Part shown: positions 16,875 through 36,369 of the stretch, in pieces
How positions within the stretch are numbered: the first letter of the stretch is position 1
Layout: the number at the start of each line of letters is the position of its first letter
DNA from: Phycisphaerae bacterium
GTDB taxonomy: Bacteria; Planctomycetota; Phycisphaerae; UBA1845; Fen-1342
NCBI GenBank assembly: GCA_963675745.2
Contig: CAXXWX010000024.1
Location: 1-64,000, forward strand
Length of the DNA: 64,000 nucleotides
Direction: 5' to 3'
The notes under the pieces: generated by a model
Told to the model about the DNA's origin: nothing
What the model saw: the letters and a program-made list of their open reading frames with translations, nothing else
Database searches by the model: none
Program-made: the position numbers and the translations under genes

Positions 16875-18563
16875 ATGTACATGCGATTCGCGCGAGGCAT
16901 CCTGGTGCTGATTGCCATCGTCGGATTGAGTGGTCAGCTGTACGCGACAGAACGACACGTGCCGGGTGAATATCCGACGATTCAGGCGGCGGTGGATGCG
17001 TGTGACGATGGCGACATAGTGGTCCTTGCCGATGGGACTTACAGCGGACCAGGGAACACTGATTGCGAAGTGCCTCTGGTCACGATCACAATCCGTTCGG
17101 CCAGTGGCCCCGCTGCCTGCACCATCGACGGCGCCGGTAGCGCGTTGAACTTCCGTATCGGCGCCAGTGGTGTATCGCACGTGCTCGAAGGAATCACGTT
17201 TCGCAACTACGGCACTTCGCTCGCACCCCAAGAAGCCGTGTCCGCCACGTACGCAGTAATCCAGGATTGCAGATTCGTAAACAACGAAGCAATTCGCGGT
17301 GGCGGCGTTAATTGCACGAGCACGACTATCAGCGAATGCACTTTCGAAGGCAACACGGCCCACGAGCAAGGTGGCGCGCTCCACGCCTACAGCTCTGACA
17401 TCTACGCCTGCACCTTTGAGGGCAACACGGCCCCAACAGGTGGCGCCGCGTGGGTCCACCAAAGTAACATCTCACAAAGCACGTTCACGGACAATTCCGC
17501 AACCGTGTCGTGCGGCGCGCTCGATGCGGATGAGGCTACCGTGTCTGCATGTTCTTTTGTCTCGAATAGCGCGCCGAACTTCGGGGCGCTTTGTGGTTAC
17601 CGAGTGGATGTCACTGATTGCACGCTAACCGACAATATCGCCACAGAATTCGGTAAAGGCCAGGGCGGCGCGGCCACAGTAAGCGAGGGATATTTCCGGG
17701 GATGCCGATTTCTTCGAAACAACGGGTGGGATGGCGGCGCGGTGTGGACAGGCGTTGACTCCAGCATATACGGATGCCGATTCGAAGATAATCAGTCATT
17801 GGGGCGTGGCGGCGCGCTATTGCTCAAAGGGCCGGGTGACGTCGTCAATTCCATATTCACGGGCAATACGGCTGAGTACTATGGCGGTGCCGTGTACTAC
17901 AGAGGTGACACCCCTCACACATTTGCACATTGCCTAGTGATCGCCAACGTCAGCGCGGGTGGTGGTGGAGGTATTTACGGCGCCATAGGAACAGGGGGCA
18001 TTTACAACAGTATCATCAGAAATAATAACGCTCTGTGGGGCCACAATGTGATGCTTGACCGTGGCATGATAATGATATTGTCACATTCGAACATTGGGCA
18101 AGAGGAGAACGATGTGTACTGGACCGGCGGAGCGTTCCCTGCCTGGGGTGATGGTGTAATCGATGTCGCCCCGGGGTTCGTGGATGCAGCCACTGGCGAC
18201 TATCGCCTCACGCCGTCTTCGCCGTGCATCGACGCAGGTGACAATGCGAGCATTCCTCTCGACCTGGATGACCTTGATGGAGACGGAAACGTTGAGGAAT
18301 CTATGCCGTTTGACATCGCAGACAGCTTCCGCATCGCACGCGGTACCGTGGACATGGGCGCGTACGAACTTCCCTTCGGCGACCAGAACTGCGACAAGGC
18401 GTTCAACAACGGCGACATTGACCCGTTCGTACTGGCGATAACCGATCCCGCGTCATACGGCGGCGAGTATCCCGAGTGCGTGCATGAGTACGCGGACATG
18501 AACGCGGATGGGTTTGTAAACAACGGCGACATCGACACGTTTGTCGCGCTACTTGGCGGGTAG
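16875..18563 (+). CDS. Secreted parallel beta-helix repeat protein with dockerin-like tail
   Basis: HVPGEYPTIQAAVD; FxxN/GGA repeats; SPCIDAGD; GDQNCD...NNGDID. Confidence 0.88.
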   Translation: MYMRFARGILVLIAIVGLSGQLYATERHVPGEYPTIQAAVDACDDGDIVVLADGTYSGPGNTDCEVPLVTITIRSASGPAACTIDGAGSALNFRIGASGVSHVLEGITFRNYGTSLAPQEAVSATYAVIQDCRFVNNEAIRGGGVNCTSTTISECTFEGNTAHEQGGALHAYSSDIYACTFEGNTAPTGGAAWVHQSNISQSTFTDNSATVSCGALDADEATVSACSFVSNSAPNFGALCGYRVDVTDCTLTDNIATEFGKGQGGAATVSEGYFRGCRFLRNNGWDGGAVWTGVDSSIYGCRFEDNQSLGRGGALLLKGPGDVVNSIFTGNTAEYYGGAVYYRGDTPHTFAHCLVIANVSAGGGGGIYGAIGTGGIYNSIIRNNNALWGHNVMLDRGMIMILSHSNIGQEENDVYWTGGAFPAWGDGVIDVAPGFVDAATGDYRLTPSSPCIDAGDNASIPLDLDDLDGDGNVEESMPFDIADSFRIARGTVDMGAYELPFGDQNCDKAFNNGDIDPFVLAITDPASYGGEYPECVHEYADMNADGFVNNGDIDTFVALLGG

Positions 18564-18667
18564 CCGGCGCTGCTTGACAACTGGATACGCATGAATCACC
18601 GAGGCGCTTGCTCGATTGTTAGTGCGAAGCGAGTGGGCCTACTTATCGTCAAGGGAGGTACTCGACA

Positions 18668-19498
18668 ATGATCCGACGACCGATCATCTTTGCTATAGTA
18701 GTATCCGCGATCACGGTCACTACGCCGCTGGCTGTCGCGGGCAGCCTCGTGCCGATTGACCTGAACCCCGAGGAGGTGGTCTGCTTCCATGCCGATGCCT
18801 CGGCGCATGGGTTTGGCAGCGATACGGACTCTGACTCCGGCGTCAGCGCCGCACATGCGTTCGCCGAACTCTGGGACGATCCTGAATGGGATTGGGCAGA
18901 GGCCGACATCACAGCGACGGACGGCGACTCAGGAGTGACGCTCTGGTCACGCGTGCAGTCGGAGGGTCCCGCAGGGTCAATGCTGGACGCCAGCACATCA
19001 CTCGTGAGTTGTGATGTCGAGATCGGCACCGCACCTGATCTCCCGGCAGGTACCGCGGCGACACTTATTGTCGACGCTGAGGCGGAGGTTGTGGGTCCAT
19101 CGGGTGCCCTGTATGACGCAAGCTATTGGGAGTTTACGGTAAGTCGCGGCGCAGCTGTGTTAGTCAACACCGCATCGGAAGGGGAGTTCGGTGTAGCAGC
19201 CTACGCCGGCGAGACCCTGTCTCTCGAGTTCACCGAAGTGGGAGACACCAGCAGTTCGCTTCATGATGTATTCGGCCTTGAGATCACGGTCAGCATGCAT
19301 ATTGGCGGCTCCGCGGATCTGAACTGCGACAGCCTCGTTAACAACGGTGACATCGATCCATTTGTGCTTGCGATCACGCAGCCGGGACAATACGCGGTTG
19401 ACTTTCCCGAATGCGACATCATGAACGGGGACATCAACGGTGACGGTTGGACGAACAACGGCGACATCGACGCGTTTGTTGCGCTACTCGGTGCGTAG
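18668..19498 (+). CDS. Secreted acidic protein of unknown function with dockerin-like tail
   Basis: GGGAGG RBS, signal peptide, C-terminal ADLNCDSLVNNGDIDPFV. Confidence 0.85.
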   Translation: MIRRPIIFAIVVSAITVTTPLAVAGSLVPIDLNPEEVVCFHADASAHGFGSDTDSDSGVSAAHAFAELWDDPEWDWAEADITATDGDSGVTLWSRVQSEGPAGSMLDASTSLVSCDVEIGTAPDLPAGTAATLIVDAEAEVVGPSGALYDASYWEFTVSRGAAVLVNTASEGEFGVAAYAGETLSLEFTEVGDTSSSLHDVFGLEITVSMHIGGSADLNCDSLVNNGDIDPFVLAITQPGQYAVDFPECDIMNGDINGDGWTNNGDIDAFVALLGA

Positions 19499-19533
19499 CT
19501 CGCGCGGGTACACAGCGCGAGGAGGATGGGGTC

Positions 19534-20691
19534 ATGCGCAGAATAGCCACGCTGGCGGGGCTTGTGGGCTTGGTACTGGTGTGCGCACAGGGGGCGCACG
19601 CAGACGTCACGATCGACACCGTCACGGTCGGTGACCCAGGGAATGTCGATGACACACACGGGGACGGCTACGGCGGGGTAGCTTACAGGTACAACATTGG
19701 CAAGTTCGAGGTCACGAACAGCCAGTACGCCGAGTTTCTGAATGCTGTCGCGAGCGTGGGTGATCAGTACGGCTTGTACAACTTTAACATGGGCGGTGGC
19801 GGCTGGAACGATATTGGGGGCATCTCGCGTAGCGGGTCGGGGACGTCGGGTGATCCTTGGGTGTACGCCGTTCGAACGAACCGTGGCAACCGACCAGTGA
19901 ATTACGTAAGCTGGTATGACGCGCTGCGTTTCGCAAACTGGATGCATAACGGCCAGCCCACTGGCGCTCAGGGAGCACCGACCACCGAGGACGGTTCGTA
20001 CGACCTGTCACTGGGTGCCAGTGTGGTCCGCAAATCCGGCTCAAAGGTATTCTTGCCAAACGAGGACGAGTGGTACAAGGCGGCGTACTACAAGGGGGGC
20101 AATACCAACGCAGGCTATTGGGATTACCCGACACAGTCGGACGGGGACGCCTACCCAATGGCCGAGCCTCCGCCGGGTACGGAAATGGCGATCGGAAGCG
20201 CAAACTGGTACAACGACATGGGGCCGTTTTGGTACGTCGACCCCACGTATTACACGACTGAGGTGGGGGCGTACGATGCCAAGCCCTCCGATAGCGCCTA
20301 TGGGACGTTTGACCAAGCCGGCAACCTGTTGGAGTGGAATGAGGCCGATTGGTTTGGTGACGGATCGGCTCGCGGCGTGCGGGGTGGGTGGTTTGACTTT
20401 CTCGGCGATCACCTCATGGCTGCGGGATCCCGTAGCGCCGAATACCCGGACCGCGAGGACTACTATATCGGGTTCCGAGTCGCCGGACTTCCTGTGTTAG
20501 TGGTAGGTGACCTGAACTGCGACGGCTGGGTCAACAACGGCGACATCGACGCGTTCGTTTTCGCGCTTTCGTATCCCGAACTCTACGCCGATGAATACCC
20601 GGGTTGCGACATCATGCTCGGCGACATCAACGGCGACGGCTGGATGAACAACGGCGACATCGACGCGTTCGTCGCGCTACTCGCCGAGTAA
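19534..20691 (+). CDS. FGE/SUMF1-domain protein with dockerin-like tail
   Basis: GAGGAGG RBS; KFEVTNSQY, RPVNYVSW, PNEDEWYKAAY, GFRVA; GDLNCDGWVNNGDID. Confidence 0.9.
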   Translation: MRRIATLAGLVGLVLVCAQGAHADVTIDTVTVGDPGNVDDTHGDGYGGVAYRYNIGKFEVTNSQYAEFLNAVASVGDQYGLYNFNMGGGGWNDIGGISRSGSGTSGDPWVYAVRTNRGNRPVNYVSWYDALRFANWMHNGQPTGAQGAPTTEDGSYDLSLGASVVRKSGSKVFLPNEDEWYKAAYYKGGNTNAGYWDYPTQSDGDAYPMAEPPPGTEMAIGSANWYNDMGPFWYVDPTYYTTEVGAYDAKPSDSAYGTFDQAGNLLEWNEADWFGDGSARGVRGGWFDFLGDHLMAAGSRSAEYPDREDYYIGFRVAGLPVLVVGDLNCDGWVNNGDIDAFVFALSYPELYADEYPGCDIMLGDINGDGWMNNGDIDAFVALLAE

Positions 20692-20750: not shown

Positions 20751-22241
20751 TCAGCGCCCGTCTGCGGAAAGATCCACGGCGATCTCGGCGAACTGATCCA
20801 GCGCCGCCTGCAAGTCTTCGGCGATCTCGGCGGCGATCTCGGCCGGCGGTGGCAGGTTATCCGAATCCTCCAGGCTCTCATCGCGCAGCCAGAAGATGTC
20901 GAGATTCACCTTGTCACGCTTGATTAGCTCGCCGTACTCGAAGGGCCGCCATCGACCGTCAGGGCTCCGCTTCGGCGTCCACGTCGCCTTGCGCTCGTGA
21001 CGATTGGCCGGCTGGAAGCACTCGACGAACTCGTCCAGGTCCGCGCGACGTAGCGGTTTCGTCTTGAGCGTGAAGCGCATGTTCGTCCGCAGATCGTAGA
21101 TCCAGAGCTTTCTGGTCCACGGCGTTTCGCTGGCCGGCTTGCGGTCGAAGAAAAGCACGTTCGCCTTGACGCCCTGTGCGTAGAAGATTCCCGTGGGCAG
21201 CCGCAGGAGCGTATGTACGTCACATTCGTGCAGCAGCTTACGGCGGACTGTCTCGCCGGCTCCACCCTCGAACAACACGTTGTCGGGCACGACGATCGCG
21301 GCCCGTCCGTTGATCTGAAGCTGCGTCTTGACGTGCTGGAGAAAGTTGAGTTGCTTGTTCTTCGTGGATGCCCAGAAGTCGTCCCGCACCACGACCTGAT
21401 CCTGCTTCTCCGTCTCGCCCTCCTCATTGACTACCGCCATGCTGCTCTTTTTGCCGAACGGCGGATTGGTGAGCACCATTGCGAAGCGCTCGCCCGAGTC
21501 ACCGCGGATCGAATCGACGACCCTGATCGGGCACTCATCCGGGTCGATCCCGTGCAGATACAGATTCATCACGCAGAGGCGGGCCGTATTGTCGACGATC
21601 TCCCAGCCGCGCAGCGCCTCGTGTTTCAGGTGGCGTTTCTGATCCGGGTTCAACCGATGGTGCTTTGAGACGAACTCGTAGGCCGCCAGCAGAAAGCCGC
21701 CGGTGCCGCAGGCTGGGTCGCAGATCGTGTTGCCCGGCTTGGGCTGCATGCAGTCCACAAGCGCCGCGATCAGCGGGCGCGGCGTGAAATACTGGCCGGC
21801 CCCTCCCTTCACGTCCTCGGCGTTCTTCTGGAGCAACCCTTCGTAGGCGTCCCCCTTCACGTCGGCGTCGAGCGTGAGCCAACTCTCCCGGTCGATCAAG
21901 TCCACGATCAGCCGGCGCAGGTTGGCTGGGTCTTGGATTTTGTTCTGCGCCTTGCGGAAGATGATGCCGAGCATCCCCGGCTCTTTGCCAAGGCCTTCGA
22001 GCGTCTTGCGGTACTGCGTTTCGAGCGCGTCGCCGTCGAGCTTCATCAGTTTCGGCCACGAAAACCGCTCGGGGATGCCGCCGGGCTTGCTAAACGGCGG
22101 CTTCGACCGCTCATCGGCCATCTTCAGAAACAGCAGATACGTCAGTTGCTCGACATAGTCGCCATAGCTGAGCCCGTCGTCGCGCAAGACGTTGCAGTAG
22201 TTCCAGAGCTTCTGAACGATCTGCTGGGAGTGGTTGGTCAT
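20751..22241 (-). CDS. hsdM: Type I R-M methyltransferase subunit
   Basis: GQYFTPR, DPACGTGGFL, NPPFG; ATGA overlap with the upstream gene fixes the start at 22241. Confidence 0.95.
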   Translation of the reverse strand: MTNHSQQIVQKLWNYCNVLRDDGLSYGDYVEQLTYLLFLKMADERSKPPFSKPGGIPERFSWPKLMKLDGDALETQYRKTLEGLGKEPGMLGIIFRKAQNKIQDPANLRRLIVDLIDRESWLTLDADVKGDAYEGLLQKNAEDVKGGAGQYFTPRPLIAALVDCMQPKPGNTICDPACGTGGFLLAAYEFVSKHHRLNPDQKRHLKHEALRGWEIVDNTARLCVMNLYLHGIDPDECPIRVVDSIRGDSGERFAMVLTNPPFGKKSSMAVVNEEGETEKQDQVVVRDDFWASTKNKQLNFLQHVKTQLQINGRAAIVVPDNVLFEGGAGETVRRKLLHECDVHTLLRLPTGIFYAQGVKANVLFFDRKPASETPWTRKLWIYDLRTNMRFTLKTKPLRRADLDEFVECFQPANRHERKATWTPKRSPDGRWRPFEYGELIKRDKVNLDIFWLRDESLEDSDNLPPPAEIAAEIAEDLQAALDQFAEIAVDLSADGR

Positions 22242-23554
22242 TTGGATTTGCCCCACAACTGACGCAGGTAAAGCGCACGGGCAGAGCGCTCCCGGCGCCG
22301 CTTCAGTTCATCGATCGATGTCGGCAGGCTCAGGCAGGCTGCGTATTCTTCAAGACTCTGCAGCCGCAAGTCGTTGCGGAGTAAGCAGAGCAGATGAGGG
22401 TCGATGAATGACTTGATCAACTGCGCGATCTGATCGCGATGATCATCCGATCGAGCAGCGTGGACGTATTGATTACGATAGCAGCGAAGGTACTGCAGAA
22501 CGTCACGAGCGAGACCGCCATCCGGGAAAACCCAGGTTGCCCGATGGACGGTGTCCTCATACCTCGCGCCTACCGTGTTCGTTATCGATTCCAGGATGCT
22601 CCACATTTGCAGAAACGCGACGTTTGGGTCCGGTTTGCTTAGTGCTGCGGAATAACGGACGATTAGGCGACGGAGATCTCGGTGATACGGGGATTGCCGA
22701 AGTCTGCGCATTGCCCATCGCCGTTTCTTCTCGATTCCATCCCAGCCACGGCGTGGCTGGAATGGCTCTTGGTGCTCAGCGTAATCGGGCTCATACCAGT
22801 ACAGATCATCGACGGGCTTGCCATCCGCCGTGTGCAATGTGTGGAATGGTCCGACATGTATGACACCGAGGGGCTTGCGCCTCTGAGGGCCAGAGCTTAT
22901 AGACCACGACCCGTATGTTCCAAGAAGATTCCACAGCCCGGACAAGAGGCTCAGCGCTTCAAGGGCGCGATCAGCGGCATCGAAGATACTGCGTCCGGCG
23001 GTTTTGACCCGCACAAGCTGATGCCGGTTCCGGCGCGCCTTACTGTGGTTGCCTTCCCGCGCAAGCTCATATCGAAGGGCATCAGGGACGGGATAGCGAT
23101 CTCTAGAACGGAGTGGCGTCACGCGGCAGGTATCGATCACAATCTGCTTTGCAGGAAACGCCTGGACCGGCAATGATGTAACGAGATAAAAGTCCCTTTG
23201 TCGCTTTCGGAAATAGCTCGCTGCCCCCTTGTCTGCCTCGTGCAATAGAGTTGCCGAATCGATCGCGGACTTGCCGCCGCATCTCTTGATCAGCGCCAGC
23301 ATTGCCGAGCGAACGATCGAATTGGCGTCATGTCCATTGAGTTCCTGCCGGTTCGGATCGAGCACAACGACTGAGCCGAGCACCGCCTGCTGGAACCGCA
23401 GAAACGACATGTCGCCCCACGAGACGCTACCCTCGGTGTTGATGCTCGCGCTTCTTCCGATATCGGCAAGCAGGTCCTTCGGCGCATGCTTGTTGTCCTC
23501 ACCCTTGTAGGCCGCGCCCGTCGGTATGCGCCAAAACACGTAGCGTCTTCCCAT
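22238..23554 (-). CDS. Putative HEPN-domain (ApeA-like) protein inside the hsd operon
   Basis: FLQMWSILE helix followed by RNQYVH (Rx4H); coupled to hsdS and hsdM. Confidence 0.7.
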   Translation of the reverse strand: MGRRYVFWRIPTGAAYKGEDNKHAPKDLLADIGRSASINTEGSVSWGDMSFLRFQQAVLGSVVVLDPNRQELNGHDANSIVRSAMLALIKRCGGKSAIDSATLLHEADKGAASYFRKRQRDFYLVTSLPVQAFPAKQIVIDTCRVTPLRSRDRYPVPDALRYELAREGNHSKARRNRHQLVRVKTAGRSIFDAADRALEALSLLSGLWNLLGTYGSWSISSGPQRRKPLGVIHVGPFHTLHTADGKPVDDLYWYEPDYAEHQEPFQPRRGWDGIEKKRRWAMRRLRQSPYHRDLRRLIVRYSAALSKPDPNVAFLQMWSILESITNTVGARYEDTVHRATWVFPDGGLARDVLQYLRCYRNQYVHAARSDDHRDQIAQLIKSFIDPHLLCLLRNDLRLQSLEEYAACLSLPTSIDELKRRRERSARALYLRQLWGKSK

Positions 23555-25023
23555 TTACTTTCCCCTTCTGCGTCTTGGCGCTCTTCGTTTCGGCTTGCTT
23601 TGTGCCGCCCGCTTCTCACGCTCGGCAGCGATACGGGCGAGTAGGGCGCTTGCGGGTTCATCAGTCGGGTCTTGCTCGACGAGCTTGCCTTCGAAGGCGT
23701 CCTTCAGGATGGACTGACGAAGGCGGTTCGATCTTCGCTGTTGCCGCTTCAGTGTTGCTTCGGCCACGTCCAGCACCGCAAACTGGCGGCCCAATTCTGC
23801 GACTATGGCCTCCTGCTCCATCACTGGCGGCAACGGCAATGGCAGACGCTCGACACGAGTCTTGTTGAGCGCTGGTTGGTTATTGCCGGAGCCGACCCTG
23901 CGCGTATCTTCGTAACGGAATTGCAGCCAGTAGTACACGAACTCAGGCAGCATCTCCGACTGCGAGACCCAGATCGCAGCACAGTTTTGGTTGTTCGCTG
24001 CGTCGATATCCAGAATGCCGGCCTTCCCTCGCGTTCTTCCTTCTCCAATCATGTTCAGGATGACAGACCCTCGGGGATTCAATTGCGTACTCGATCCCGA
24101 TAGCCCGTCCGCCGTTATCAACTCGCGAGTTTGATTTATCCGGCAGAACTGGACCTCACCTGAGGACACCCAGGGGATATCGCCATTCCAGAAACTTGGC
24201 TTCTTGCGACTCGGAGTAGCCCCCACATGAACCGAGAAGCATTGACCGAGGCACGTCCACAGCCATCCACGAGGCAATTCGAACGATGGCACCTCGACCG
24301 GCCCCTCCGGCTCCGTGTATTTCGCCTTCCACTTGTCGTCCTTGGGCGGCTTCCCCTTGGCGGTCATCTTGGCGAGTTCGGCTTCTTCCCAGCGGCGGCG
24401 GCGCTGGCGGAGGATGCGGTCGAGGAGTTTGGGGGCCGGCTCGACATCGGGGTGGGCGGCGCGCCAGTCGGCGGTGAGCGCCCCCGTGCAGGCCGCCTTC
24501 AGCACCGCCGCCTTGTAGCGCTTCAGGTTCGCCTCCACCCGCCGCAGCGCCGCCACGCCCGCATCCAGCCGGGAGAACTGCTTCTCAATCTCGGCCACGA
24601 TGCGCTGCTGCTCGGGACGGGGGGCAACCCGTGCGGTGACCCCATGTAAATCATCCCGACTCAAACTTGTATCGCAGTCGATTGGTCGAATTGCCCGAGG
24701 CGCATGTACCTTAACTGGTGAGCAAAGAACTTCAGGTTCAGTGCCTCTCGGTGATCTGAGAAGAAGACGGTATCAATGGGCCAACTCGGAGTCTCAGACA
24801 AATAGACTGCTCCGACCGATCCCTTTCGGCCAACGACAATTGTCGGATGTTTGACAAGCGGCTCGGAATGGCACCCAACGATGCCGCTTGAGCCATATAC
24901 AGCGATGTCGCCGTCGCTGTTTCGGACGCGCTTCGTCAGCCCCTTCCCGTAAGCGAATGGGAGTACCTTTCCAAGCGGCGCTTCGAGCCAACCTGACGGC
25001 AGTTTGGAGTTGAATGGATTCAT
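23555..25023 (-). CDS. hsdS: Type I R-M specificity subunit, frameshifted near 24670
   Basis: LPSGW TRD1; EQQRIVAEIEKQFSRLDAG; LPRGW TRD2; LRQSILKDAFEGKLVEQDP. One added C restores STAIPSLSRDD. Confidence 0.92.
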
Positions 25024-25157
25024 GCCGCCAGCGCCTCATTCAGTTCATCCAGCAGCCGGTTGAACTCATCGCCGAAGACCTGATAGACCTTGCCGATGCC
25101 ACCCTCCTCGTTGAATGGCGTGTATTCGAAGTCATCCACGGTGATCGTCATGCTCGC
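25020..25157 (-). repeat. Second, diverged copy of the hsdR 3' end (direct repeat of 27028..27165)
   Basis: Encodes ASMTITVDDFEYTPFNEEGGIGKVYQVFGDEFNRLLDELNEALAA*, 40/45 identical to the HsdR C-terminus. Confidence 0.93.
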
Positions 25158-25168
25158 CGTTGCGATGC

Positions 25169-27031
25169 TCACTCCGCGCCCTCCCGCGGGGCAATGTACT
25201 TCTGGTCCGGATGGTTGTGCTCATCGGGATGGAGGTACGCGAGCCGGCCTTCGGTCAGCAGGCGCTTGATGTTCCGCGAGCGCAGGTGATTGGGTGTCTT
25301 GTGGGTCAGTGCGCCGATCTCCGCCAAGCTGAGCGGCCGCCAGGCGCAAAGCCCGATAATCATCCGATCCAGCTCCTGCGGCGTCGAACGCTTGCCAAGC
25401 GTGGCCAACTCCGCGCGCAAGGGTTCGGGCAACTCCGCGCGCAAGGCCTCGAACTCCGCGCGCAAGGGCGGGGACTCCGGGCGCAAGCCGCTTTCGTCCG
25501 GGCGCAAGGGTTTGGCCGTTGTTGGGGCACCCGGCGCCGCCAATAGCCGGACGCCGGGGAGGTAATACGTCGCAGCCCCCTTGCCGCGCTGCTCCAGCAG
25601 GCCGCCGTCCCGCAGACGGCGGAGACGGCCGCTGGCCGTGAGCGTGTCCACATGATTGACCGAGCGGTAGGCGGTGTTGTCGATGGCCCCCAACTCGCGC
25701 AAGACTATCAGGGCGCGCGCGTCGTAGTTGTCCAAATTGCAGTCGCGGAACTGGGACAGCCACTCCCAATCGGCGGGGCTGAGCAGGTGGATGACCAGGA
25801 GCCGGACAGTGAACTCGTCCCGCTCGCGATCAGACTCGAACAGCGGCTGGGTCAGATTCGCCTCCTCCATGGCCTCGCGCATGGCACGGATGCCGGTGCC
25901 CTTGGTCTCCGCGAAGCCGACATCGTGCAGGATGGCGGCGATCTTCGGGCTGCGCGTCTTCGAGCCCGGCTCGCCGAGACGTTCGTCCGGCACGAGGGAG
26001 TAGCCGGGGTTCTTGATTTCGATGCGATTGGCGTAGCGGATGATCTGTACGGGCTGATGCCGTTGATAGCTGCGGTGCATAACGGCGTTGACCATCGCTT
26101 CGCGAATGACCTTCCGCGGAATGAGCGGCACGTCGCGGCGCTGGATGCCATCTTCGGCGAGAGTGAAATCTTTCGGAATGTCGTCCAGGATCTGACTGAT
26201 CAGTTGGGGGATCGTGAGAATCAGCGGACCGAGCTTCTCGATAGACTGGTAGCGCTTGTCCGGATCGGGAACCCATTCGCGCCCCTCGACGCGGATGTAA
26301 TCCACTCGCGTCATGGGCAGGTGTCGGCGCAGGGCGATGGCCTTGCCGAACACAATGAGGCCGGCGATGGTCAGGCACGTGCGGTCACCAACGCGCGTTG
26401 TCGCGCCGAGTGCGTACAGCAGGTCTTCATCAGAGTAGCCGACCAGATCGCTCTCCGTGCCCGTCTCCACGCGCAACCGGCGATACTCCTGCAGTGCGCG
26501 CGGATCGACGTCTTCCAGCGAAGTATCCGGCAGGGCTACCTCGTCGTTCGAGCCTTGGCCGCGGGCTTGGAAGAACATCGCGATGTCATCATCCGTGCAA
26601 ACCTGGTCAGTCGAGCCAACGCGGCGAAACGCACCCTTCGGCAGCCCTTTGCTCTTGATGTAGATCGGTTTGTCGTGTTCTGGAGCCTCGGGAACGTGAA
26701 CCACCATTACGTTCTTGTGGTTGTACTGCTCAACGCGAATATCCGGGCGGATGGGGACGTTGAACACCTCGCGGCATTGCGTCGCCAAATCAGCCTGCAC
26801 CTTGTCTGGTTCTGCAACGCCGACAATCTCGTAGTCGGGGAAGAGCGCATCCTCCTTGCGCGCCGCGCCGAGCAGGATGTAGCCGCCACCACGGTCGGGT
26901 TCGTTCGAGAACGACGAGATCGTTTTGAGCACGCTCTTGCCGACTTCCTCGGCGCGCTTCGCTTCAATCTCCACCGACTCATCCGCGGAGCAGAGCTTCT
27001 GCCAAAGATCGTCGAACGATGGAATGCTCAT
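25169..27031 (-). CDS. AlbA_2/Schlafen-like domain + HATPase_c_4 + C-terminal wHTH protein
   Basis: ESVEIEAKRA...SFSNEPDRGGGYILLG; REAMVNAVMHRSY...IEIKNPG; GTGI. Confidence 0.85.
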   Translation of the reverse strand: MSIPSFDDLWQKLCSADESVEIEAKRAEEVGKSVLKTISSFSNEPDRGGGYILLGAARKEDALFPDYEIVGVAEPDKVQADLATQCREVFNVPIRPDIRVEQYNHKNVMVVHVPEAPEHDKPIYIKSKGLPKGAFRRVGSTDQVCTDDDIAMFFQARGQGSNDEVALPDTSLEDVDPRALQEYRRLRVETGTESDLVGYSDEDLLYALGATTRVGDRTCLTIAGLIVFGKAIALRRHLPMTRVDYIRVEGREWVPDPDKRYQSIEKLGPLILTIPQLISQILDDIPKDFTLAEDGIQRRDVPLIPRKVIREAMVNAVMHRSYQRHQPVQIIRYANRIEIKNPGYSLVPDERLGEPGSKTRSPKIAAILHDVGFAETKGTGIRAMREAMEEANLTQPLFESDRERDEFTVRLLVIHLLSPADWEWLSQFRDCNLDNYDARALIVLRELGAIDNTAYRSVNHVDTLTASGRLRRLRDGGLLEQRGKGAATYYLPGVRLLAAPGAPTTAKPLRPDESGLRPESPPLRAEFEALRAELPEPLRAELATLGKRSTPQELDRMIIGLCAWRPLSLAEIGALTHKTPNHLRSRNIKRLLTEGRLAYLHPDEHNHPDQKYIAPREGAE

Positions 27032-29784
27032 GCCGCCAATGCCTCATTGAGTTCATCAAGCAACCGGTCGATCCTGTCGCCAAACACCTGGTGGACCTTG
27101 CCCAGGCCACCTTCTTCATTAAACGGCGTGTACTCGAAGTCGTCCACGGTGATGGTCATGCTGGCGGCGATATGGTCCTTGATCAGCGTCAGCCAGCGCT
27201 GCTGCTCGGGCGTGAACGTCCGTCCCTGCGTCTCCTGTTCGCGCAACCAGTCAGCAAAGCGCTGTTCGACCACCTCGCCAAAGGGCGTTAGCGTCTGATC
27301 GTGGTCCAGAGCATGGCGGACGAGAGAAACGATGTCGGTCAGTTGCTTGCCGCCGCTGCCTGTGACCTTGGATTTCTCCAGCGTCTCGTAGGCCCGCCAG
27401 AGGCGCTCCGGCGTGAGCCCGAGCGGCGGCTTCTTGATGGCGTCGGCGAGTTCCTTGATTTCCGAGAAGGTCAGCCGGCGGCGATACGGCTGGCTGTAGA
27501 GCACCTGGAGCGCCGTGATTTCGTCGTGGTTGTCTTCGATGAACTTCTCGAAGCTCTCGACCGTCTGCTTGGCCCGGTCCTGGGCCTTGGCGTCGAAGCC
27601 GGCGTCGAGCAACTCATCCTGGCTGACCGTATCGATGGTCTGCTCGAAGGACTGCTTGATTTCGACGATCTTGTTGCGGACCTTCGCCTTGCGAAGTGGC
27701 TTCGTCGCCTCGGTAATCATCTTCGTGGCGGCTTGCTTGATTTGCTCGTCGGCGGGGGCGTCGGTGTTGTGTTCGGACTTGGCACGCTCGACCTGGCGGT
27801 CAACATCGAGTGCGGAGACGAGGCCGCCGACAATCTGCGAGAGGGACTGGCCGCCAGCGGCTTCCTTGATCTCGGCCTGCTGCTCTTTACTCAGGCGGCG
27901 TTCCAGCCGGGCGAGACGACCAGCCAACGACGAGATAACTTCCTCTTCGGTGCCGCCGAAGGCCACGGTCTCCATGAGCTTCTCAAACGAGACGGCTTTC
28001 TTGCGTTCCAGGGGCTGGGTGTCGGACTTGGCGGCTTCGCAAACGCCGACGGCATCGACGATGACGAAGTGGTCCTTGGTGCCGCCGTCGGGCGTGATCG
28101 CCTGAAAATCGGTATCGTTGATGACCCGCACGCCGCGGCCTTTCATCTGTTCGAAAAACGTGCGGCTCTTGACCGAGCGCATAAAGAAGACCACCTCCAG
28201 CGGCTTGATGTCGGTGCCGGTGGCAATCATGTCCACGGTGACGGCGATACGCGGCATGGGTGAGTTGCGGAACTCGGCGATCAGGTCTTCGGGCTTCGCG
28301 CCGGTGGTCTTGTAGGTGATCTTCCGGCAGAACTCGTTGCCCTTGGCGAACTCCTCCCGGACGACCTGCACGATGTCGTCGGCGTGGGAATCACTCTTCG
28401 CAAAGATCAGCGTCTTGGGCACCCACGTCCGCCCCGGGAACAACTCGGTAAACAAGGCGTCTTTATATGCACGGATGACCGTCCGTATCTGGTCAGGCGC
28501 GACGACGTCCCGGTCGAGCTTCCTCTCGTCATAGATCAGGTCTTCGTCGAGCTGCTCAAAGCGTTTGGCGCGGGTCTCACGATCGCGTCTGTCAACGTAG
28601 AAGCCCTTGTCGACCTTCGAGCCTTGCTCGGTGATGCGCGTCTTGATGCGATACACGTCGAAGTTGACGTTGACGCCGTCGGCGACCGCCTGCTCGTGGG
28701 CGTACTCCATCACGAGATTGCGATTGAAATAGCCGATGGTCTGCATCGACGGCGTGGCGGTGAGGCCGATGATGTGGGCGTCGAAGTAGTCGAGCACCTG
28801 CCGCCACAGGTTGTAGATCGAGCGGTGGCACTCGTCGGTAACGATGAAATCGAAGGTCTCGATGGGAATGGCGGGGTTGTACTCGACGGGGATCGGCTCC
28901 TTGGCAAGCAGCGGCCCGGAATCAAAAGTCGAGCCCTCCTCCAGCTCGGGGTCGAGTTCTTCGCCCTTCAGAATCGAGTAGAGCCGCTGGATGGTCGTGA
29001 TGCAGACCCGGCTGACCTTGTCGATCGTGCTGCTCTGGAGATGCTGGACGTTGTACAGCTCGGTGAATTTGCGTCCATCGTCCGGCGTGACGAACTGCTG
29101 GAATTCCTTTAGCGTTTGCCGGCCCAGGTTGCCACGGTCTACGATGAAGACGACCCGGCGGGCGTCGGCGTGGCGGATCAGCCGGTAGACGGAGTTGACC
29201 GCCGTGAAGGTCTTGCCCGAGCCGGTGCTCATCTGAATCAGCGAGCGGGGGCGGTTGTTGGCGAGCGACTCCTCCAGACTGACGATGGCGCGCTGCTGGA
29301 CATCCCACAGGCGGCCGGTGACTAGCGGCGGCATGGTGCGCAGGCGTTCCCTGAGTTGCTCGGTCAATTGCGCCCACTCGATCAGCGTCTCGGGTCGATG
29401 GAAGGTGAAGACCTCACGGCTGCGGGCGTCGGGGTCCAGCCTACTGGTGAAGCGCGTCTCCCGGCCGGTGCTCTCGTATGCGAAAGGCAGCGGGCGGTGA
29501 TAGGCGGGCAGGTTTTCCGGGAGCCCCTGTGTGTACTTGGCCGACTGGATCTCGACGCCCGTGAGCGTCGTGCCCTCGGGTTTGGCCTCGACCACACCGA
29601 TAGCCCTACCGCCAGCGTAGAGCAGATAATCGGCTTCGTCGCCGCCGGTGAGCGGGAACTCACGGATGGCGACACCGAGATTGGCGGTGATGTCAGCTTC
29701 GTCGCGGTCCTGCACCTGCCAGCCGCAGGCTTCAAGCTGCTGATCGATGCTTTTGCGGGCTCGCTCTTCCGGCGTCTTCGCCAT
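27028..29784 (-). CDS. hsdR: Type I R-M restriction subunit (EcoAI/EcoEI-like)
   Basis: ADY...VVEAK nuclease motif, MSTGSGKT, DECHRS, GLTATP, QMKGRG. Confidence 0.95.
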   Translation of the reverse strand: MAKTPEERARKSIDQQLEACGWQVQDRDEADITANLGVAIREFPLTGGDEADYLLYAGGRAIGVVEAKPEGTTLTGVEIQSAKYTQGLPENLPAYHRPLPFAYESTGRETRFTSRLDPDARSREVFTFHRPETLIEWAQLTEQLRERLRTMPPLVTGRLWDVQQRAIVSLEESLANNRPRSLIQMSTGSGKTFTAVNSVYRLIRHADARRVVFIVDRGNLGRQTLKEFQQFVTPDDGRKFTELYNVQHLQSSTIDKVSRVCITTIQRLYSILKGEELDPELEEGSTFDSGPLLAKEPIPVEYNPAIPIETFDFIVTDECHRSIYNLWRQVLDYFDAHIIGLTATPSMQTIGYFNRNLVMEYAHEQAVADGVNVNFDVYRIKTRITEQGSKVDKGFYVDRRDRETRAKRFEQLDEDLIYDERKLDRDVVAPDQIRTVIRAYKDALFTELFPGRTWVPKTLIFAKSDSHADDIVQVVREEFAKGNEFCRKITYKTTGAKPEDLIAEFRNSPMPRIAVTVDMIATGTDIKPLEVVFFMRSVKSRTFFEQMKGRGVRVINDTDFQAITPDGGTKDHFVIVDAVGVCEAAKSDTQPLERKKAVSFEKLMETVAFGGTEEEVISSLAGRLARLERRLSKEQQAEIKEAAGGQSLSQIVGGLVSALDVDRQVERAKSEHNTDAPADEQIKQAATKMITEATKPLRKAKVRNKIVEIKQSFEQTIDTVSQDELLDAGFDAKAQDRAKQTVESFEKFIEDNHDEITALQVLYSQPYRRRLTFSEIKELADAIKKPPLGLTPERLWRAYETLEKSKVTGSGGKQLTDIVSLVRHALDHDQTLTPFGEVVEQRFADWLREQETQGRTFTPEQQRWLTLIKDHIAASMTITVDDFEYTPFNEEGGLGKVHQVFGDRIDRLLDELNEALAA

Positions 29785-31132: not shown

Positions 31133-31396
31133 ATGCCAGATCGAATTCACGCGCCGACTGCGGGTGACGGAGCATACGCCCCGCCATCGTTGCCCGCGCA
31201 GGAGTATCTCAACGCCGATGACTTGGCCCGGCGCTATAAGGCATCGGCTAGATCGATCTTTCGCTGGGCGGATCGTGGCCTCATGCCGCCCGGCACCAAG
31301 ATCGGCACGCTAAGACGGTGGTCGCGCCACGACATCGAGGAGTGGGAGCGGGGCGGGTGCCGCCCGGTTCGAGGCGGAGGTGTTGGACCGCGATGA
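31133..31396 (+). CDS. AlpA/excisionase-like HTH protein
   Basis: YLNADDLARRYKASARSIFRWADRGLMPPGTKIGTLRRWSRHDIEEW; GGAG RBS; ATGA overlap with the primase. Confidence 0.88.
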   Translation: MPDRIHAPTAGDGAYAPPSLPAQEYLNADDLARRYKASARSIFRWADRGLMPPGTKIGTLRRWSRHDIEEWERGGCRPVRGGGVGPR

Positions 31397-34085
31397 CGGT
31401 ACACCTGAAAGCCTCCGCCCTGTGGTACGCCGCCCACGGCTGGTTCGTACTCCCGCTGCACTCCATGCGCGACAGCGTCTGTACGTGCGGCAAGTCCGGC
31501 TGTAGCAGTCCAGCTAAGCACCCGCATACCAAGAACGGCGTTAAGGATGCCTCGGCTGATCCGAGCGTAATCGGGCGCTGGTGGAAACAGTGGCCCGGCG
31601 CGAATGTCGGCGTCTGCACGGGTGCCAGATCGGGGATCGTGGTGCTGGACATTGATCCGCGCCATGGTGGGGACACATCGCTAACCGCTTTCACTCAGGA
31701 AAATGGCGAGCTGCCGGAAACGGTCGAGGCCCTAACCGGTGGTGGTGGGCGACACTTGGCCTTCCAGCATCCTGGCGGCGTCATACGCAACCCTGCCAAC
31801 GTACAACCGGGGCTCGATGTGCGCGGCGACGGCGCCTACGTCGTGGTTCCGCCTTCGATGCATGCGAGCGGGCAGCGTTATCGGTGGCGTGCGGGACATG
31901 GTCCGCACGAGATCAATCCGGCGGAGATCCCGCCAGCGTTGCTCGAACTCATGACGGGCGTGCGTACCAGACAGACCACGCCGGACAAACCGATTCCGGC
32001 GGCCACAGAAGCCATCGCCGAGTTGGTGCGGGCCGGGCAGCGGTACGTCGCAGGTTGCGCAACAGCATCTGAGGGCGGCCGGAACAACGCGGCGTTCAGC
32101 ATCGCCGGCCACCTCGTTTCATTCGCCACCGATGACGGCCTGCGTCTCAATCAATCGCAGGTTCTCAACCTGCTTCGCCCGTGGAACGACCGGAACGACC
32201 CACCGATATCAGAACGCGAATTGGCGCAAGTGGTCGCCTCGGCGATAAAGAACGGCGCGCCGCGGTCGCCTCATGTTGTCCGTACGCGTACGCCCGGGGA
32301 TCCTGACAGAACTACCAGGGGCGTCTTTGCCAGCACTTCCCTGCCAACCTCGCCCGCAGATTGGCCTGACCCACAGCCGCTTCCGGAGGAGTTGCCACCG
32401 GTCGCTCCATTCGAATTCAGTCTGTTGCCAGATTCGCTGAGGCCGTGGATTGAGGACATCGCCGAACGCATTCAGTGCCCACCGGACTACCCCGCCGTTG
32501 CCGCGATGATTGCGCTCGCAGGCGTCCTTGGTCGCAAAGTCGGGATTCGGCCAAAAGCCAGGACGACTGGCTCGTCGTCCCGAACCTCTGGGGGGCGGCG
32601 ATTGGGTCGCCGAGCGTCATGAAGACGCCCGCAACTCAAGAGCCGCTGCGCCCACTGAGGCGATTGGAGATCGAGGCCAAGCAGTCGTTTGATGTTGCGA
32701 TCAAGGAGCACGAGGCCGAAGCACTGGTTGCGAAGGTGCGGCGAAAAGAAGCTGAAGCGGCCATCAAGACAGCGCTGAAGAAGGGTGAAGATGCGAGTGC
32801 CGTTGCCAGCAGAGCACTGACCGACAAGCCGGCCCACCCGATTCGGCGACGATACCTCGTCAACGACTCAACGGTAGAAAAGCTGGGCGAGATCCTGAAT
32901 GAGAATCCCAACGGCGTGGTCTGCTACCGTGATGAGCTTGTGGGCCTGCTGAAGTCCCTGGAGAAGGAGGGCCAGGAAGGCGCCCGGGCCTTCTACCTCG
33001 AGGCGTGGAACGGCATCGGCCGCTACACCTACGACCGCATCGGCCGCGGGACGGTCGACATCGAGCACGCGATCGTGTCGGTCATTGGCTCGATCCAGCC
33101 CGGGCCGCTCGGCGCGTACCTACGGGGTGCCCTCGCCAACGGCGCGGATGCCGATGGGCTGATGCAACGCTTCCAACTCGCCGTCTGGCCCGAAGTGTCG
33201 CGCAACTGGCACAACGTCGATCGATGGCCCGATTCGGCGGCGCGCCAGAGGGCATTTGATGTCTATGGTCGCCTCAATGCGCTCAATCCGGCAGAGGTCG
33301 GCGCTGAGCCTGACCAGGCGGATGCAGACAGCATCGCGTACCTGCGGTTCAGTCCAGAGGCCCAGGTAGTCTTCGACGATTGGCGTTCCAAGTTGGAGAA
33401 CCGCCTCCGCCGCGGCGACGAGCATCCGGCGATTGTGTCGCACCTTGCAAAGTACCGTAGCCTGATCCCGTCCCTGGCGCTGCTTATCCACCTGGCCGAT
33501 GACGGAACTGGACCAGTCGAATCTGAGCCGATCCGGAAGGCCGTCCGCTGGGGCGAATATCTTGAGTCTCATGCCCGCCGAATCTACGCGCCGGCCCTCA
33601 CGCCGGACGTTGCGGCAGCTCGCGCGCTCGGCCAGAAACTCCTCACCGGGAAGCTCGCCGACGGATTCGCGCTGCGCGACGTGTATCGCCATGGGTGGGC
33701 AGGCCTGAGTCGGCGGGAGGAGGTTGCGGCGGCTGTCGACCTGCTCGTGGACTTCGACTGGCTGATGACGACGACCGAGCCGACCGCCGGTCGGCCGCGC
33801 ACGACGTACTGGATCAACCCCAAGATTCACCGCACCTCCCTGGAAGGCACTGACAAAACTGACAAAGACCCTGCGGACGACCTTATGTCAGTTCTGTCAG
33901 TGCCTCACCAAGGGGGCCACAGAGTTGACACCGCCCGCGCCTCAGCCGATGGGCCGAGCGTCAGTCTCGGTGATTGCGAAGTTGACAATGGCTGCGCCGA
34001 CGGCGAGCAGCCCCCGGATGACGCTCGCTTCGCCCACATTCCGGAAGCCGCCGGCGCGGACGGCAGCGAGTGGGGGGAAGTCTGA
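31393..34085 (+). CDS. Primase-polymerase + PriCT + DUF3987 (YfjI-like) replication protein, frameshifted near 32555
   Basis: AKHP, ANVG...VVLDIDPRHGG, LDVRGDGAYVVVPPS, GGRNN; then NLWGAAIGSPSVMKTP, YRDEL, DGLMQRF. One added A in an A-run restores RPKSQDDW. Confidence 0.88.
33845..33905. repeat. Nested inverted repeat, candidate replication origin
   Basis: AGGCACTGACAAAACTGACA...TGTCAGTTCTGTCAGTGCCT (two ACTGACA units facing two inverted units). Confidence 0.75.
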
Positions 34086-34087
34086 TA

Positions 34088-34477
34088 ATGGCAACGCCCG
34101 ACACCGCCGCCGCGCTGCTAGCTGAACTGACGCGTCAGGGGATCGAGCTGCAGGCTCGGGGCAACCGACTTCGCTATCGCCCACGCGCGGCCTTGACGCC
34201 GGAGCTGGTCGAGCAAGTCCGAGCGCGCAAATCAGAGTTGCTCTCGCTGCTGGCTCCGGAAGACGACCAGACGTCGAACAGGGCAGCACAAACGGGGCCA
34301 GCGTTCCGCTTCTGCGACGGGCTGATGGCATTCGGGGACGTCTGTGCGGGGTGGATGCCCGCCGCGTGGGCTGAGGAGCTCCGTCGCAAGGCGGACCGGT
34401 GCGATGCCTACCGGCCGGATGTCGCAGACTACTACCGCCGCTGGGCCGAGGATATCGAGCAGCGTCTCAAGGAGTAA
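34088..34477 (+). CDS. Small hypothetical protein with TubC_N-like N-terminus
   Basis: LLAELTRQGIELQARGNRLRYRPRAALTPELVEQVRARKSELLSLL; 2 bp after the primase stop. Confidence 0.75.
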   Translation: MATPDTAAALLAELTRQGIELQARGNRLRYRPRAALTPELVEQVRARKSELLSLLAPEDDQTSNRAAQTGPAFRFCDGLMAFGDVCAGWMPAAWAEELRRKADRCDAYRPDVADYYRRWAEDIEQRLKE

Positions 34478-34648
34478 GCGTGATAGCCCATCTACACAGA
34501 TCCCGGCGGCGGGGACACAGCAGGCAGTCGAGCGACCGCACCAACATCGCGAAGAAAGCGGAAAACGACCGCGAACTGGCCTTGAGCTTTCCGGCTGGTT
34601 GAGCCTCAGTGTGGTCGTCCCGGTGGAGAGCCGGGGCCAGGACGAAAC

Positions 34649-36154
34649 ATGGGTGCCATATACCGCAAAGCCTACACCATGCCGCTGCCGGCCGGAGCCG
34701 AGATCTTCGACCGCGATGGTGTGCGGATGGCGCGCTGGCGGTTGCGGAACGGCAAGGCCCGCTCGGCGGAGGTGGTGCCCAACGAGAACGGCAGGGTCCG
34801 CGTCCGCGGGCGATCAGCTTTCTACATGGCCAGATACCGTGACGGGGCCGGCCAGGCTGTAGAAACCTCAACGGGCTGCCGGGACGAGATGGCTGCTCGC
34901 GCCGTGCTCGCGAAGCTCGAGCGCCGCGCAGAGTTGGTCCGAGCGGGCGTCATGACCGACGCCGAGGATCAGGTCGCCGAGCATGCTCATGTCCCACTGG
35001 CCAAGCACTTCGATGCCTACCAGCGGCATCTGACAATCAAGGGCGGTGCGCCACGGCGGGTCAAGATGGTCCGGGCACGGTTGGACCGCTTGGCCAGGGA
35101 ATGCGGCTTTGCCCAGTTGAACAAGATGACCGGGAGCGCCCTGGAACAGTGGCTCGCCGAGCAGATGAACAAAGGCATGTCGGCCGCGACCCGTAACGGC
35201 TACCGTGAGGCGGCGGTCTGCTTCGGGAACTGGTGTCGCCGAACGGGGCGTCTGACGCTGAATCCGTTCGCTGATGTCCCGCGGGCGGATGCGAAGTGCG
35301 ACCGACGTCATCAGCGCCGGGCGCTGACAGCTGGCGAGATCGATCGCCTGCTGCTGATCGCCCGTCTGCGACCGTTGGCTGAGTACGGCCGTGAGGTCAC
35401 GTGTGTTGCCCGGGAAGGGCGCTCACCGAAGAGCCGGGCGACGTGGAAGCGCGCTCCGCTAACCATCGAGAATATCCAGGAGGCCGTCGCCCGCGCGCGG
35501 GAAGCTCTGGAGACCACCCCGGCTTTCATCGCTGATCTCGAACACGCCGGTCGCGAGCGTGTGCTCATCTACAAGACACTGCTATTGACTGGTCTCCGGA
35601 AGGGTGAGTTGGCGTCATTGACGGTAGCTCATCTCGAACTCGATGGTCCGGTTGCATATGCCGTTCTCGACCCGGCGAGTGAGAAGAACCGACAGGGCTC
35701 ATCCATACCATTACGGGGCGACCTCGCCACCGAGTTGCGCGAATGGCTACGCGAGCGTCTGGTGAGACTTCAGGACGAACATCGTGCAAAGGGTGAGCCT
35801 GTGCCGGCGCGCTTGCCGGCCAGCACGCCGCTCTTTCGTATCCCATCCGGGCTATCGCGCATCCTCGATCGAGATCTCGCCGCGGCCGGCATCCCAAAGC
35901 GCGATGAGCGCAATCGCGTCGTGGACGTTCACGCATTCCGCCACAGCTTTGGCACGCATCTGTGCGCGGCCGGCGTGCCTCTCCGCACGGCCCAGGCGGC
36001 TATGCGGCATTCCAAGCCCGAGTTGACAGCCAACATCTACACCGATCCGAAGTTGCTCGATATCGCCGGAGCGATCGAAGCCCTCCCCGCGTTGGCGACC
36101 CTGGAGAGACACGCCTCGGCAACAGGCTCGTCTCTCGCGCGGAACGGCGGCTAG
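34649..36154 (+). CDS. Tyrosine recombinase/integrase
   Basis: TGLRKGEL, EKNR, HAFRH, MRHSKPELTANIY. Confidence 0.95.
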   Translation: MGAIYRKAYTMPLPAGAEIFDRDGVRMARWRLRNGKARSAEVVPNENGRVRVRGRSAFYMARYRDGAGQAVETSTGCRDEMAARAVLAKLERRAELVRAGVMTDAEDQVAEHAHVPLAKHFDAYQRHLTIKGGAPRRVKMVRARLDRLARECGFAQLNKMTGSALEQWLAEQMNKGMSAATRNGYREAAVCFGNWCRRTGRLTLNPFADVPRADAKCDRRHQRRALTAGEIDRLLLIARLRPLAEYGREVTCVAREGRSPKSRATWKRAPLTIENIQEAVARAREALETTPAFIADLEHAGRERVLIYKTLLLTGLRKGELASLTVAHLELDGPVAYAVLDPASEKNRQGSSIPLRGDLATELREWLRERLVRLQDEHRAKGEPVPARLPASTPLFRIPSGLSRILDRDLAAAGIPKRDERNRVVDVHAFRHSFGTHLCAAGVPLRTAQAAMRHSKPELTANIYTDPKLLDIAGAIEALPALATLERHASATGSSLARNGG

Positions 36155-36195
36155 CATGGCACGCCTCGGCGTAGCGCCCGCCCCATCCTTCCCGG

Positions 36196-36363: not shown

Positions 36364-36369
36364 CAAACG

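Follow-up and report, generated by a model that had tools for sequence, protein, structure and literature searches.

The stretch of DNA analyzed here (the window: 64,000 nt, positions 1 to 64,000 of contig CAXXWX010000024.1 in the Phycisphaerae bacterium assembly GCA_963675745.2) carries on its minus strand a type I restriction-modification (R-M) operon in which additional DNA lies between the restriction gene hsdR and the specificity gene hsdS. The order is hsdR, a Schlafen/ATPase gene that we refer to as the cargo, a 138-nt copy of the hsdR 3' end that we call the orphan tail, and hsdS, followed by a 438-aa gene and the methyltransferase gene hsdM (Table 1). ATGA overlaps join hsdR to the cargo (27028-27031) and the orphan tail to hsdS (25020-25023). 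A first-pass annotation, made from the sequence alone, had described the layout from hsdR to hsdS, with 11 bp between the cargo and the orphan tail and with hsdR left intact, and our analysis confirmed it. HsdR has nuclease, helicase and C-terminal domains and HsdM is an N6 methyltransferase, as in type I systems; the gene order is R-S-M. The NCBIfam matches of the R-M proteins fall below the family cut-offs, so no R-M subfamily was assigned.

Table 1. Features of the R-M operon, with positions in the window.
Feature	Position	Strand	Description
hsdR	27028..29784	-	918 aa, type I restriction subunit; PF08463 (EcoEI_R_C) 1e-45, ResIII, HSDR_N; intact
Functional hsdR 3' end (upstream repeat copy)	27028..27165	-	TGA overlaps cargo ATG
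Cargo gene	25169..27031	-	620 aa, SLFN_AlbA_2 + HATPase_c_4
Shine-Dalgarno-like GGGAGG	25180..25185	-	7 nt before GTG 25172, within the cargo's last codons
50-aa mini-ORF	25020..25172	-	GTG start overlaps cargo stop; TGA stop overlaps hsdS ATG
11-bp joint, cargo stop to hsdR homology	25158..25168	-	
Orphan hsdR tail	25020..25157	-	45 codons + stop; PF08463 3.5e-8
hsdS	23555..25023	-	Split: 24661-25023 (120 aa) and 23555-24664 (369-aa frame)
Second embedded gene	22238..23554	-	438 aa
hsdM	20751..22256	-	N6_Mtase, HsdM_N; likely ATG at 22241

The two tails form a direct repeat of 138 nt (25020-25157 and 27028-27165) that is 82% identical, with a spacing of 2008 nt. When the genome was searched by tblastn with the hsdR end, the orphan was found at an E value of 4.9e-18 as the sole second copy, and this result and the repeat comparison rule out a chance repeat. 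The genome holds 127 pairs of repeats of 100-300 nt within 0.5-5 kb, so neither the size nor the spacing is rare in itself; the telling property of this repeat is its identity as an hsdR end. The copies differ at 25 bases, with 17 synonymous and 5 non-synonymous codon differences and 40 of 45 residues identical, which bears out the many synonymous differences noted in the first-pass annotation. The ratio of non-synonymous to synonymous substitution rates (dN/dS) is 0.05 at a dS of approximately 1.3, and 6.5 non-synonymous differences are estimated where approximately 45 would be expected were half of the divergence neutral. A related locus, L031 (fetched loci are numbered with L and genomes with G), has a functional hsdR tail that matches the orphan tail at 91% identity, compared to 82% for the orphan's own hsdR, whereas the bodies of the two hsdR genes are 78% identical. 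Because dN/dS is this low at such a dS and the orphan is closer to the L031 tail than to its own hsdR, the sequences support the idea that the window tails are two long-separated functional alleles.

This layout is not confined to the window. A search with a tail alignment yielded 77 loci from genomes (from the best 80 of 183) and 80 from metagenomes (from the best 80 of at least 255), and the loci nearest to the window were labelled Phycisphaerae. Among 151 fetched loci with an hsdR end, hsdS adjoined it in 87, a cargo and a tail followed in 18, a cargo without a profile match followed in 23, and no hsdS was in view in the remaining 23. Where hsdR adjoined hsdS, the two overlapped by RTGA in 80 of 87 loci. 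Thus, 23 of 41 cargo insertions had no profile-detected tail, although two of these 23 hold micro-tails of 24-26 nt. A set fetched by its tails is enriched for orphans and genome samples give a fairer rate. In these samples, two or more tails at one place occurred in 12 of 136 genomes with an hsdR-end match (centre genomes excluded), distributed over Phycisphaerae (1/33, this being G646, counted once with L031), the phylum of G778 (7/64) and the class of G779 (4/39); the 12 fall in Phycisphaerae, Nitrospirota and Verrucomicrobiae. Eleven new double-tail genomes were fetched and the layout was confirmed in them, with a truncated hsdR in L254 and an orphan that is frameshifted or interrupted in L252 and L253. 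Ten candidates (L140, L255-L259, L264-L267) proved not to be tailed slots between hsdR and hsdS. A less sensitive single-protein query found two close tails in 0 of 28 other genomes of Planctomycetota, and a search of plasmids returned four records with one tail each and no match to the cargo at 1e-50.

The general tailed layout is also present in a complete genome (L053), where the joint is out of frame. The cargos, of varied defence or toxin-antitoxin kinds, include ParDE, PemK, MazE/PIN and YefM/YafQ pairs, YhcG, DUF4062-HATPase-Fic-like, IrrE-like, TPR, HAD, GIY-YIG, PDDEXK_3, AAA_21, Fic, Abi_2, RloB and a repetitive extragenic palindromic (REP)-associated transposase, and arrays with three tails occur in L031, L063, L093, L105 and L261. 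One tailed cargo in L031 (10187-11839; 550 aa) has no Pfam, PADLOC or NCBIfam match. On an hsdR tree of 122 rows, 25 of them tailed, the tailed state needs 19 changes, at least 14 of them forced, compared to a mean of 23 when shuffled; the rows counted as untailed include loci with little downstream DNA. Together, these data indicate that the tailed layout is real and recurs in about one in ten loci of the window's hsdR family. The first-pass annotation had called for such a survey of duplicated tails around variable genes, and its concern that the arrangement might be unique to this assembly can be set aside.

In the window, the orphan tail is part of a 50-aa open reading frame (ORF) that ends on the hsdS ATG. 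The ATG at 25151, from which this mini-ORF had first been read, is present; however, there is no comparable ribosome site near it, and it is disfavoured compared to an in-frame GTG at 25172 that overlaps the cargo TGA (GTGA) and has a strong ribosome site, GGGAGG, 7 nt upstream. The GTG is the likely start as judged by these motifs, and the mini-ORF so placed is likely to pass ribosomes from the cargo to hsdS. The first-pass annotation, which overlooked both this start with its ribosome site and the split in hsdS, had already suggested that the orphan could couple hsdS translation, and this suggestion gains weight from the fetched loci.

We assembled 32 joints with an identifiable upstream gene, for which cargo ends were hand-picked from ORF lists. 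Left out were L037 (last cargo on the opposite strand), L089, L252 and L253 (broken tails), the first and third tails of L093 (upstream gene or its end out of view), L094 (cargo frame enters the tail), L140 and the second tail of L165 (not in the slot between hsdR and hsdS) and the first tail of L254. In 25 of the 32 joints a start lies between positions -14 and +12 nt relative to the stop of the cargo, and the frame is open through the tail's stop. Among joints with an RTGA overlap, 18 of 19 are in frame and open, or 10 of 11 when counted by cargo family, with the DUF4062 cassette of L260 counted within that family. The family count gives a binomial p of 1.3e-4 against a null of 1/3, and 3.6e-4 without PemK, whose ATG is native to hsdR; both values are indicative given related loci, hand-picked cargo ends and an approximate null. 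The in-frame pattern is also present in loci fetched after it was first noticed. These results suggest that in-frame joints are favoured, consistent with a translational relay, and we infer both selection for frame and actual translation of the mini-ORF.

In the peptide itself, decay is slight: rare residues are found at 29 of 1161 positions in orphans versus 104 of 6493 in functional tails (p 0.04), with none in the window orphan, and some orphans break invariant residues (G20D, P14L). Among in-frame cases, the mini-ORF ranges from 24 to 131 codons and its N-terminus varies freely. Slight decay with free length and N-terminus would be expected if selection acts on where the mini-ORF lies and on its frame, in line with the coupling that Roberts et al. 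(2012, PMC3510504) proposed for hsdM-hsdS.

How such tails might arise is suggested by the arrangement of the operon and by the joints. In this family, the usual RTGA overlap of hsdR with hsdS leaves no intergenic space for an insert, and the resident hsdR end has to be retained for the hsdS start that it overlaps. The 5' edge of the tail varies, with homology starting approximately 20 to 200 nt before the stop, and where one cargo occurs both with a tail and without, the mini-ORF opens with the hsdS start of the untailed locus. The mini-ORF of L100 begins with approximately 30 nt that match the hsdS start of L077, an untailed locus with the same cargo, and that of L067 matches the hsdS N-terminus of L059 over a longer stretch. 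L039 and L048 have RTGACGGC in common, a matter of a few codons, and the second mini-ORF of L031 begins with an hsdS-like LPAG stretch. In the window, the joint starts with GTGAGC, as does the joint of the same cargo in L031, and this is likely to be a remnant of the donor's hsdS start. The orphans end in LAA in 26 of 26 tail pairs, as do 85 of 86 hsdR ends adjacent to hsdS, whereas the upstream ends of the same pairs are LVA or LVS in 12 of 26; therefore, the orphan is the hsdS-linked end and the upstream copy the cargo-linked end. Truncated hsdM heads precede a full hsdM in 15 of 71 loci and were not selected by our query; several of the heads contain stops or insertions. Such heads are the mirror image of hsdR tails that one-sided anchoring with an illegitimate joint predicts.

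We therefore favour, with moderate confidence, an origin by homology-facilitated illegitimate recombination (HFIR) that leaves the resident hsdR end in place as an in-frame relay to hsdS. Incoming DNA with another hsdR end and a cargo would anchor by homology within hsdR. The second joint would be illegitimate, falling just inside the resident hsdR 3' end and leaving that end behind as a spare tail, which would be kept for its overlap with the hsdS start and for the in-frame mini-ORF by which ribosomes would travel from the cargo to hsdS. The two tails could then serve as homology arms by which cassettes are lost, built up into stacks through new insertions or transferred while hsdS stays in place. 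Across the family, the loci have the hallmarks of HFIR arrays, namely a variable, non-homologous joint on one side, a remnant shifted downstream and successive events. By analogy, the upstream copy in the window is likely to be the end of the incoming allele and the orphan tail the end of the resident allele, shifted downstream; an HFIR origin for the window itself, the recombination events and the choice of which copy is foreign would follow from that analogy.

Related observations were made at other joints. The hsdM heads lie in the interval between hsdS and hsdM, ahead of a cargo, in L050, L051, L057, L058, L059, L064, L066, L072, L074, L076, L098, L099, L103, L107 and L134, with three of them stacked in L064, and orphan hsdS 3' ends are found in L059, L080 and L107. 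Some cargo genes end in hsdR-like codons (FNEVLA, LNEALAS; L097:9960-9983, L105:9960-9986) or run into the tail (L094:10154-10222), as if tails had fused to cargo C-termini. In L100 (10141-10968), L077 and L093, one cargo is a REP-associated tyrosine transposase (RAYT). Short palindromic elements, presumably REP-like, are found in frame at many hsdS N-termini (L043, L059, L067, L122, L170) and at some joints, and these may supply illegitimate joints.

Several results weigh against this origin. In a tree of 20 tails both window copies fall on one side of a branch (78/93), so that a common local origin of the window tails is not rejected by these sequences. Identity along the window hsdR to six relatives (72-81%) showed no switch, and no crossover was located. 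The window tails both end in LAA, and the pair has no 5'/3' gradient and a longest identical run of 11 nt. In 7 of the 32 joints there is no in-frame start near the cargo stop, the p values for frame bias are to be read as above, and the near-functional sequence of orphans may reflect selection on the peptide. HFIR is described as rare (PMC5361080). The split hsdS also counts here; if real, it would mean that selection for coupling has lapsed in the window. As assembled, it is an apparent one-base loss near 24668 (break within 24661-24670), and both pieces match Specificity_I, yet in different frames. The nearby prim-pol/DUF3987 gene is also frame-split (31318-32622 and 32475-34085), which makes it plausible that both are long-read assembly errors. 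Lastly, in 26 tail pairs likeness is greater over the 5' half than over the 3' half (0.83 versus 0.70), the mean difference being +0.12 in repeat pairs compared to -0.02 in identity-matched pairs of functional tails (p 2.6e-5). Identical blocks of 62 nt in L141 and 35 nt in L153 have lengths reached by 0 of 72 and by fewer than 1 in 1000 of 1879 controls. These features are not predicted by one-off HFIR and favour later recombination between tails. They point to conversion or crossover in some loci, as read from these alignments; the window pair has neither sign.

Such exchange is central to the origin put forward in the first-pass annotation, in which a foreign unit of hsdR tail and cargo enters by using the conserved tail as a landing pad. 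On this reading, a preformed circle of cargo and tail, or a tail-cargo-tail fragment, enters by RecA crossover in the conserved tail, the tails are reusable and the locus arose in this way. The same cargo and joint occur on hsdR branches parted by untailed relatives (DUF4062, PemK, ParDE), the same cargo is first or second in different loci (Schlatpase, DUF4062, TPR, RAYT), and 5' likeness beyond that of controls and long identical blocks (L141, L153, L095, L105) are seen, all of which speak for this reading. However, scattered presence fits repeated loss equally well and cannot separate gain from loss, successive displacement also shifts positions, and the joints vary and carry hsdS starts. 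The tail stop lies 149 nt from the stop of the cargo in the window as well as in L031, but as proof of one ancestral unit this is weakened because the first 56 nt align poorly and look hsdS-derived in L031. The window pair lacks an identity block, and no excision joint was found among the matches listed in contigs from public runs (15 of 58). Because a landing pad needs a tailed donor, it cannot explain first origins, and we consider it unlikely as the way in which the locus arose. Of the earlier proposal, the entry of foreign DNA is supported to the extent that two diverged alleles are present. The tail as dedicated landing pad at the origin conflicts with the varying 5' edge, the mini-ORFs with hsdS starts, the mirror-image hsdM heads, the insertions without a detected tail and cargo orthologues outside R-M operons. 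The best reading is that landing pads are a by-product of the tails. Deletion, stacking and transfer of cassettes through the tails can be inferred from the scattered distribution and from the identity blocks in other loci. More tentatively, and short of an even chance in our view, the units may form an integrase-free cassette system in which each cargo and tail brings its own homology arm and relay, so that defence or toxin-antitoxin genes stack, excise and cross genera while hsdS is kept, with purifying selection on the frame of the mini-ORF and possibly on a restriction-tuning peptide.

The unrejected sister position of the window tails would also be expected had the hsdR end been duplicated locally in tandem, with the cargo inserted between the copies and divergence in place, and in 5 of 26 pairs no functional tail is closer to the orphan than that of its own hsdR. 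We regard this as improbable. A dN/dS of 0.05 at this dS would need long selection at the protein level on a spare copy, the long branch in the 20-tail tree leads to the functional copy rather than the orphan, and for 21 of 26 pairs a closer tail is found at a different locus.

Somewhat less probable still is that the 50-aa peptide is itself functional, for example as an HsdR C-terminal helix decoy that binds the methyltransferase and tempers restriction. The retained near-functional sequence would fit, as would the structure, in which the tail closes a helical domain predicted with confidence (predicted local distance difference test, pLDDT, 88.6) and spans its long terminal helix together with the last of the short ones, and short tail-only proteins recur in databases. 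In contrast, the tail is just a quarter of that domain and is absent from approximately 9 in 10 loci, the length and N-terminus of the mini-ORF vary, and some orphans have broken invariant residues, frameshifts or interruptions. No solved structure matched the HsdR C-terminal domain by sequence or with Foldseek. Several of the tail-only database proteins (P0001, P0005, P0009, P0010, P0014, P0016) are exactly 50 aa with unrelated N-termini, a size that may reflect limits of searching or gene calling.

A chimeric assembly of two strains joined at the repeat, to which the nearby frameshifts, a contamination estimate of 6% and the lack, among the matches listed, of a piece bridging orphan and hsdS might point, is very improbable because a separately assembled public-run contig covers 25074-27391 without gaps and with 14 differing letters, running from the body of hsdR through the cargo into the first 84 nt of the orphan, and because L031 has the same cargo with a tail and the complete genome has the general layout. 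This contig is probably from the same sample and serves as a check on assembly rather than as an independent occurrence; no RNA data set was among the holders listed.

As a comparison, sequential displacement by HFIR has been proposed for type VI secretion system (T6SS) and Rhs loci (Kirchberger et al. 2017, PMC5361080; bioRxiv 10.1101/2021.05.28.446156). As described there, those arrays likewise have a one-sided homologous anchor, a variable illegitimate joint and a resident 3' part moved downstream, and they grow by successive events and are afterwards moved by ordinary recombination. They differ in keeping an immunity gene, whereas the hsdR tail is a non-toxic end that holds the start of the next gene and has a joint biased in frame. 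For insertion with long target duplication, Furuta, Abe and Kobayashi (2010, PMC2853133) noted that start or stop sites frequently lie within the repeats and that R-M genes may serve as the target. That process also places an insert between long direct repeats with no integrase, and the window has a direct repeat longer than 30 bp and an insert below 20 kb. However, the inserts described there are R-M genes with tabulated repeats mostly above 90% alike, whereas here one Schlafen/ATPase gene, with no R and M genes, lies inside an R-M operon, and the repeats (82%, dS approximately 1.3) are two diverged alleles rather than duplicates of a single target known from an empty allele. Empty alleles were seen only in the more distant relatives L032-L035.

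Payne et al. (2024, bioRxiv 10.1101/2024.01.29.577857) report defence-type genes that lie inside type I R-M, BREX, DISARM and Hma systems. Such genes, PrrC, RloC and the Campylobacter rlo genes are likewise defence-type genes nested on the same strand between hsd genes, and the window cargo fits this class since it lies on the same strand between genes of one R-M system. In the main text of Payne et al., the word 'recombination' was not found, nor was an account of flanking repeats or of a route of entry. In EcoKI, a stop-start overlap ahead of hsdS in hsdM-hsdS is where coupling was proposed by Roberts et al. (2012); by that account the window differs in its order, R-S-M, and in that coupling would run through a stranded 50-codon copy. 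Our search of the open-licence literature, supplements excluded, turned up no mention of orphan hsdR tails or of mini-ORFs acting as relays; Furuta Supplementary Figure 7, which concerns R-M genes as targets, may bear on this novelty. The hsdR tails probably reflect a known mechanism (T6SS, Rhs) in a new setting, and the new, testable content is the frame bias and the pairs of donor and derived loci. Integron cassette arrays are stackable units of one or two genes, often toxin-antitoxin or defence genes, parted by repeats. The operon differs in having no integrase and no fixed site, with repeats that are coding homology of variable length and edge; attC models were outside the search.

Thousands of candidate defence genes are reported to be embedded in type I R-M operons (bioRxiv 10.1101/2024.01.29.577857), and the tails are likely to be a readable record of how these operons take in extra genes. 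They suggest a rule for RTGA overlaps, by which an insert survives if the end of the upstream gene is restored and ribosomes still reach the downstream gene. The frame bias would then be a sign of selection on a 50-codon ORF for position rather than product. Tails and hsdM heads also mark the boundaries and order of inserts and flag unannotated cargo, such as the 550-aa gene of L031, as defence candidates.

The window cargo has the features of the stand-alone Schlatpase (SLFN + GHKL) genes reported in type I R-M operons (bioRxiv 10.64898/2026.05.29.728809): SLFN_AlbA_2 precedes HATPase_c_4, with E-x4-E-x-K at 18-25 and the Schlafen box SSFSN at 39. It is a likely RNase-type defence effector. 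In that report, defence and tRNA cleavage are shown for an Argonaute fusion rather than for a stand-alone protein like the window cargo. PADLOC gave partial matches only, to SLFN-pAgo and Aga models. The G+C content at third codon positions (GC3) is 0.81, compared to 0.83 for hsdR and hsdM, so a foreign origin by composition was not borne out. An 81% orthologue occupies the second position in L031, behind another cassette. In L190 and L191, orthologues at 81-83% lack any hsd match in the surrounding 1.5 kb, and homologues at 52-56% follow hsdM without a tail (L192, L193, L195, L196); such tail-free relatives reject the idea that the cargo always travels with a tail. Short repeats of 21-24 nt are present in its C-terminal linker (25403-25515).

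The 438-aa gene has a lower GC3 (0.64); it had no Pfam, PADLOC or NCBIfam match, no flanking hsd remnant was found, and it is a defence candidate. The operon is approximately 5 kb from an integrase and a tRNA-Gly gene, which is adjoined by a tyrosine recombinase (34649-36154). To judge from the prim-pol, DUF3987, tyrosine integrase and tRNA-Gly genes (31318-36441), the R-M operon may be part of an integrative island. Contig C27 (21211-21292) holds 82 nt that exactly match the 3' end of the tRNA gene and the bases that follow it. At 16875-20691, three secreted-type genes have a common C-terminal repeat of approximately 180 nt, which we take to be dockerin-like and which is found in many copies in the genome.

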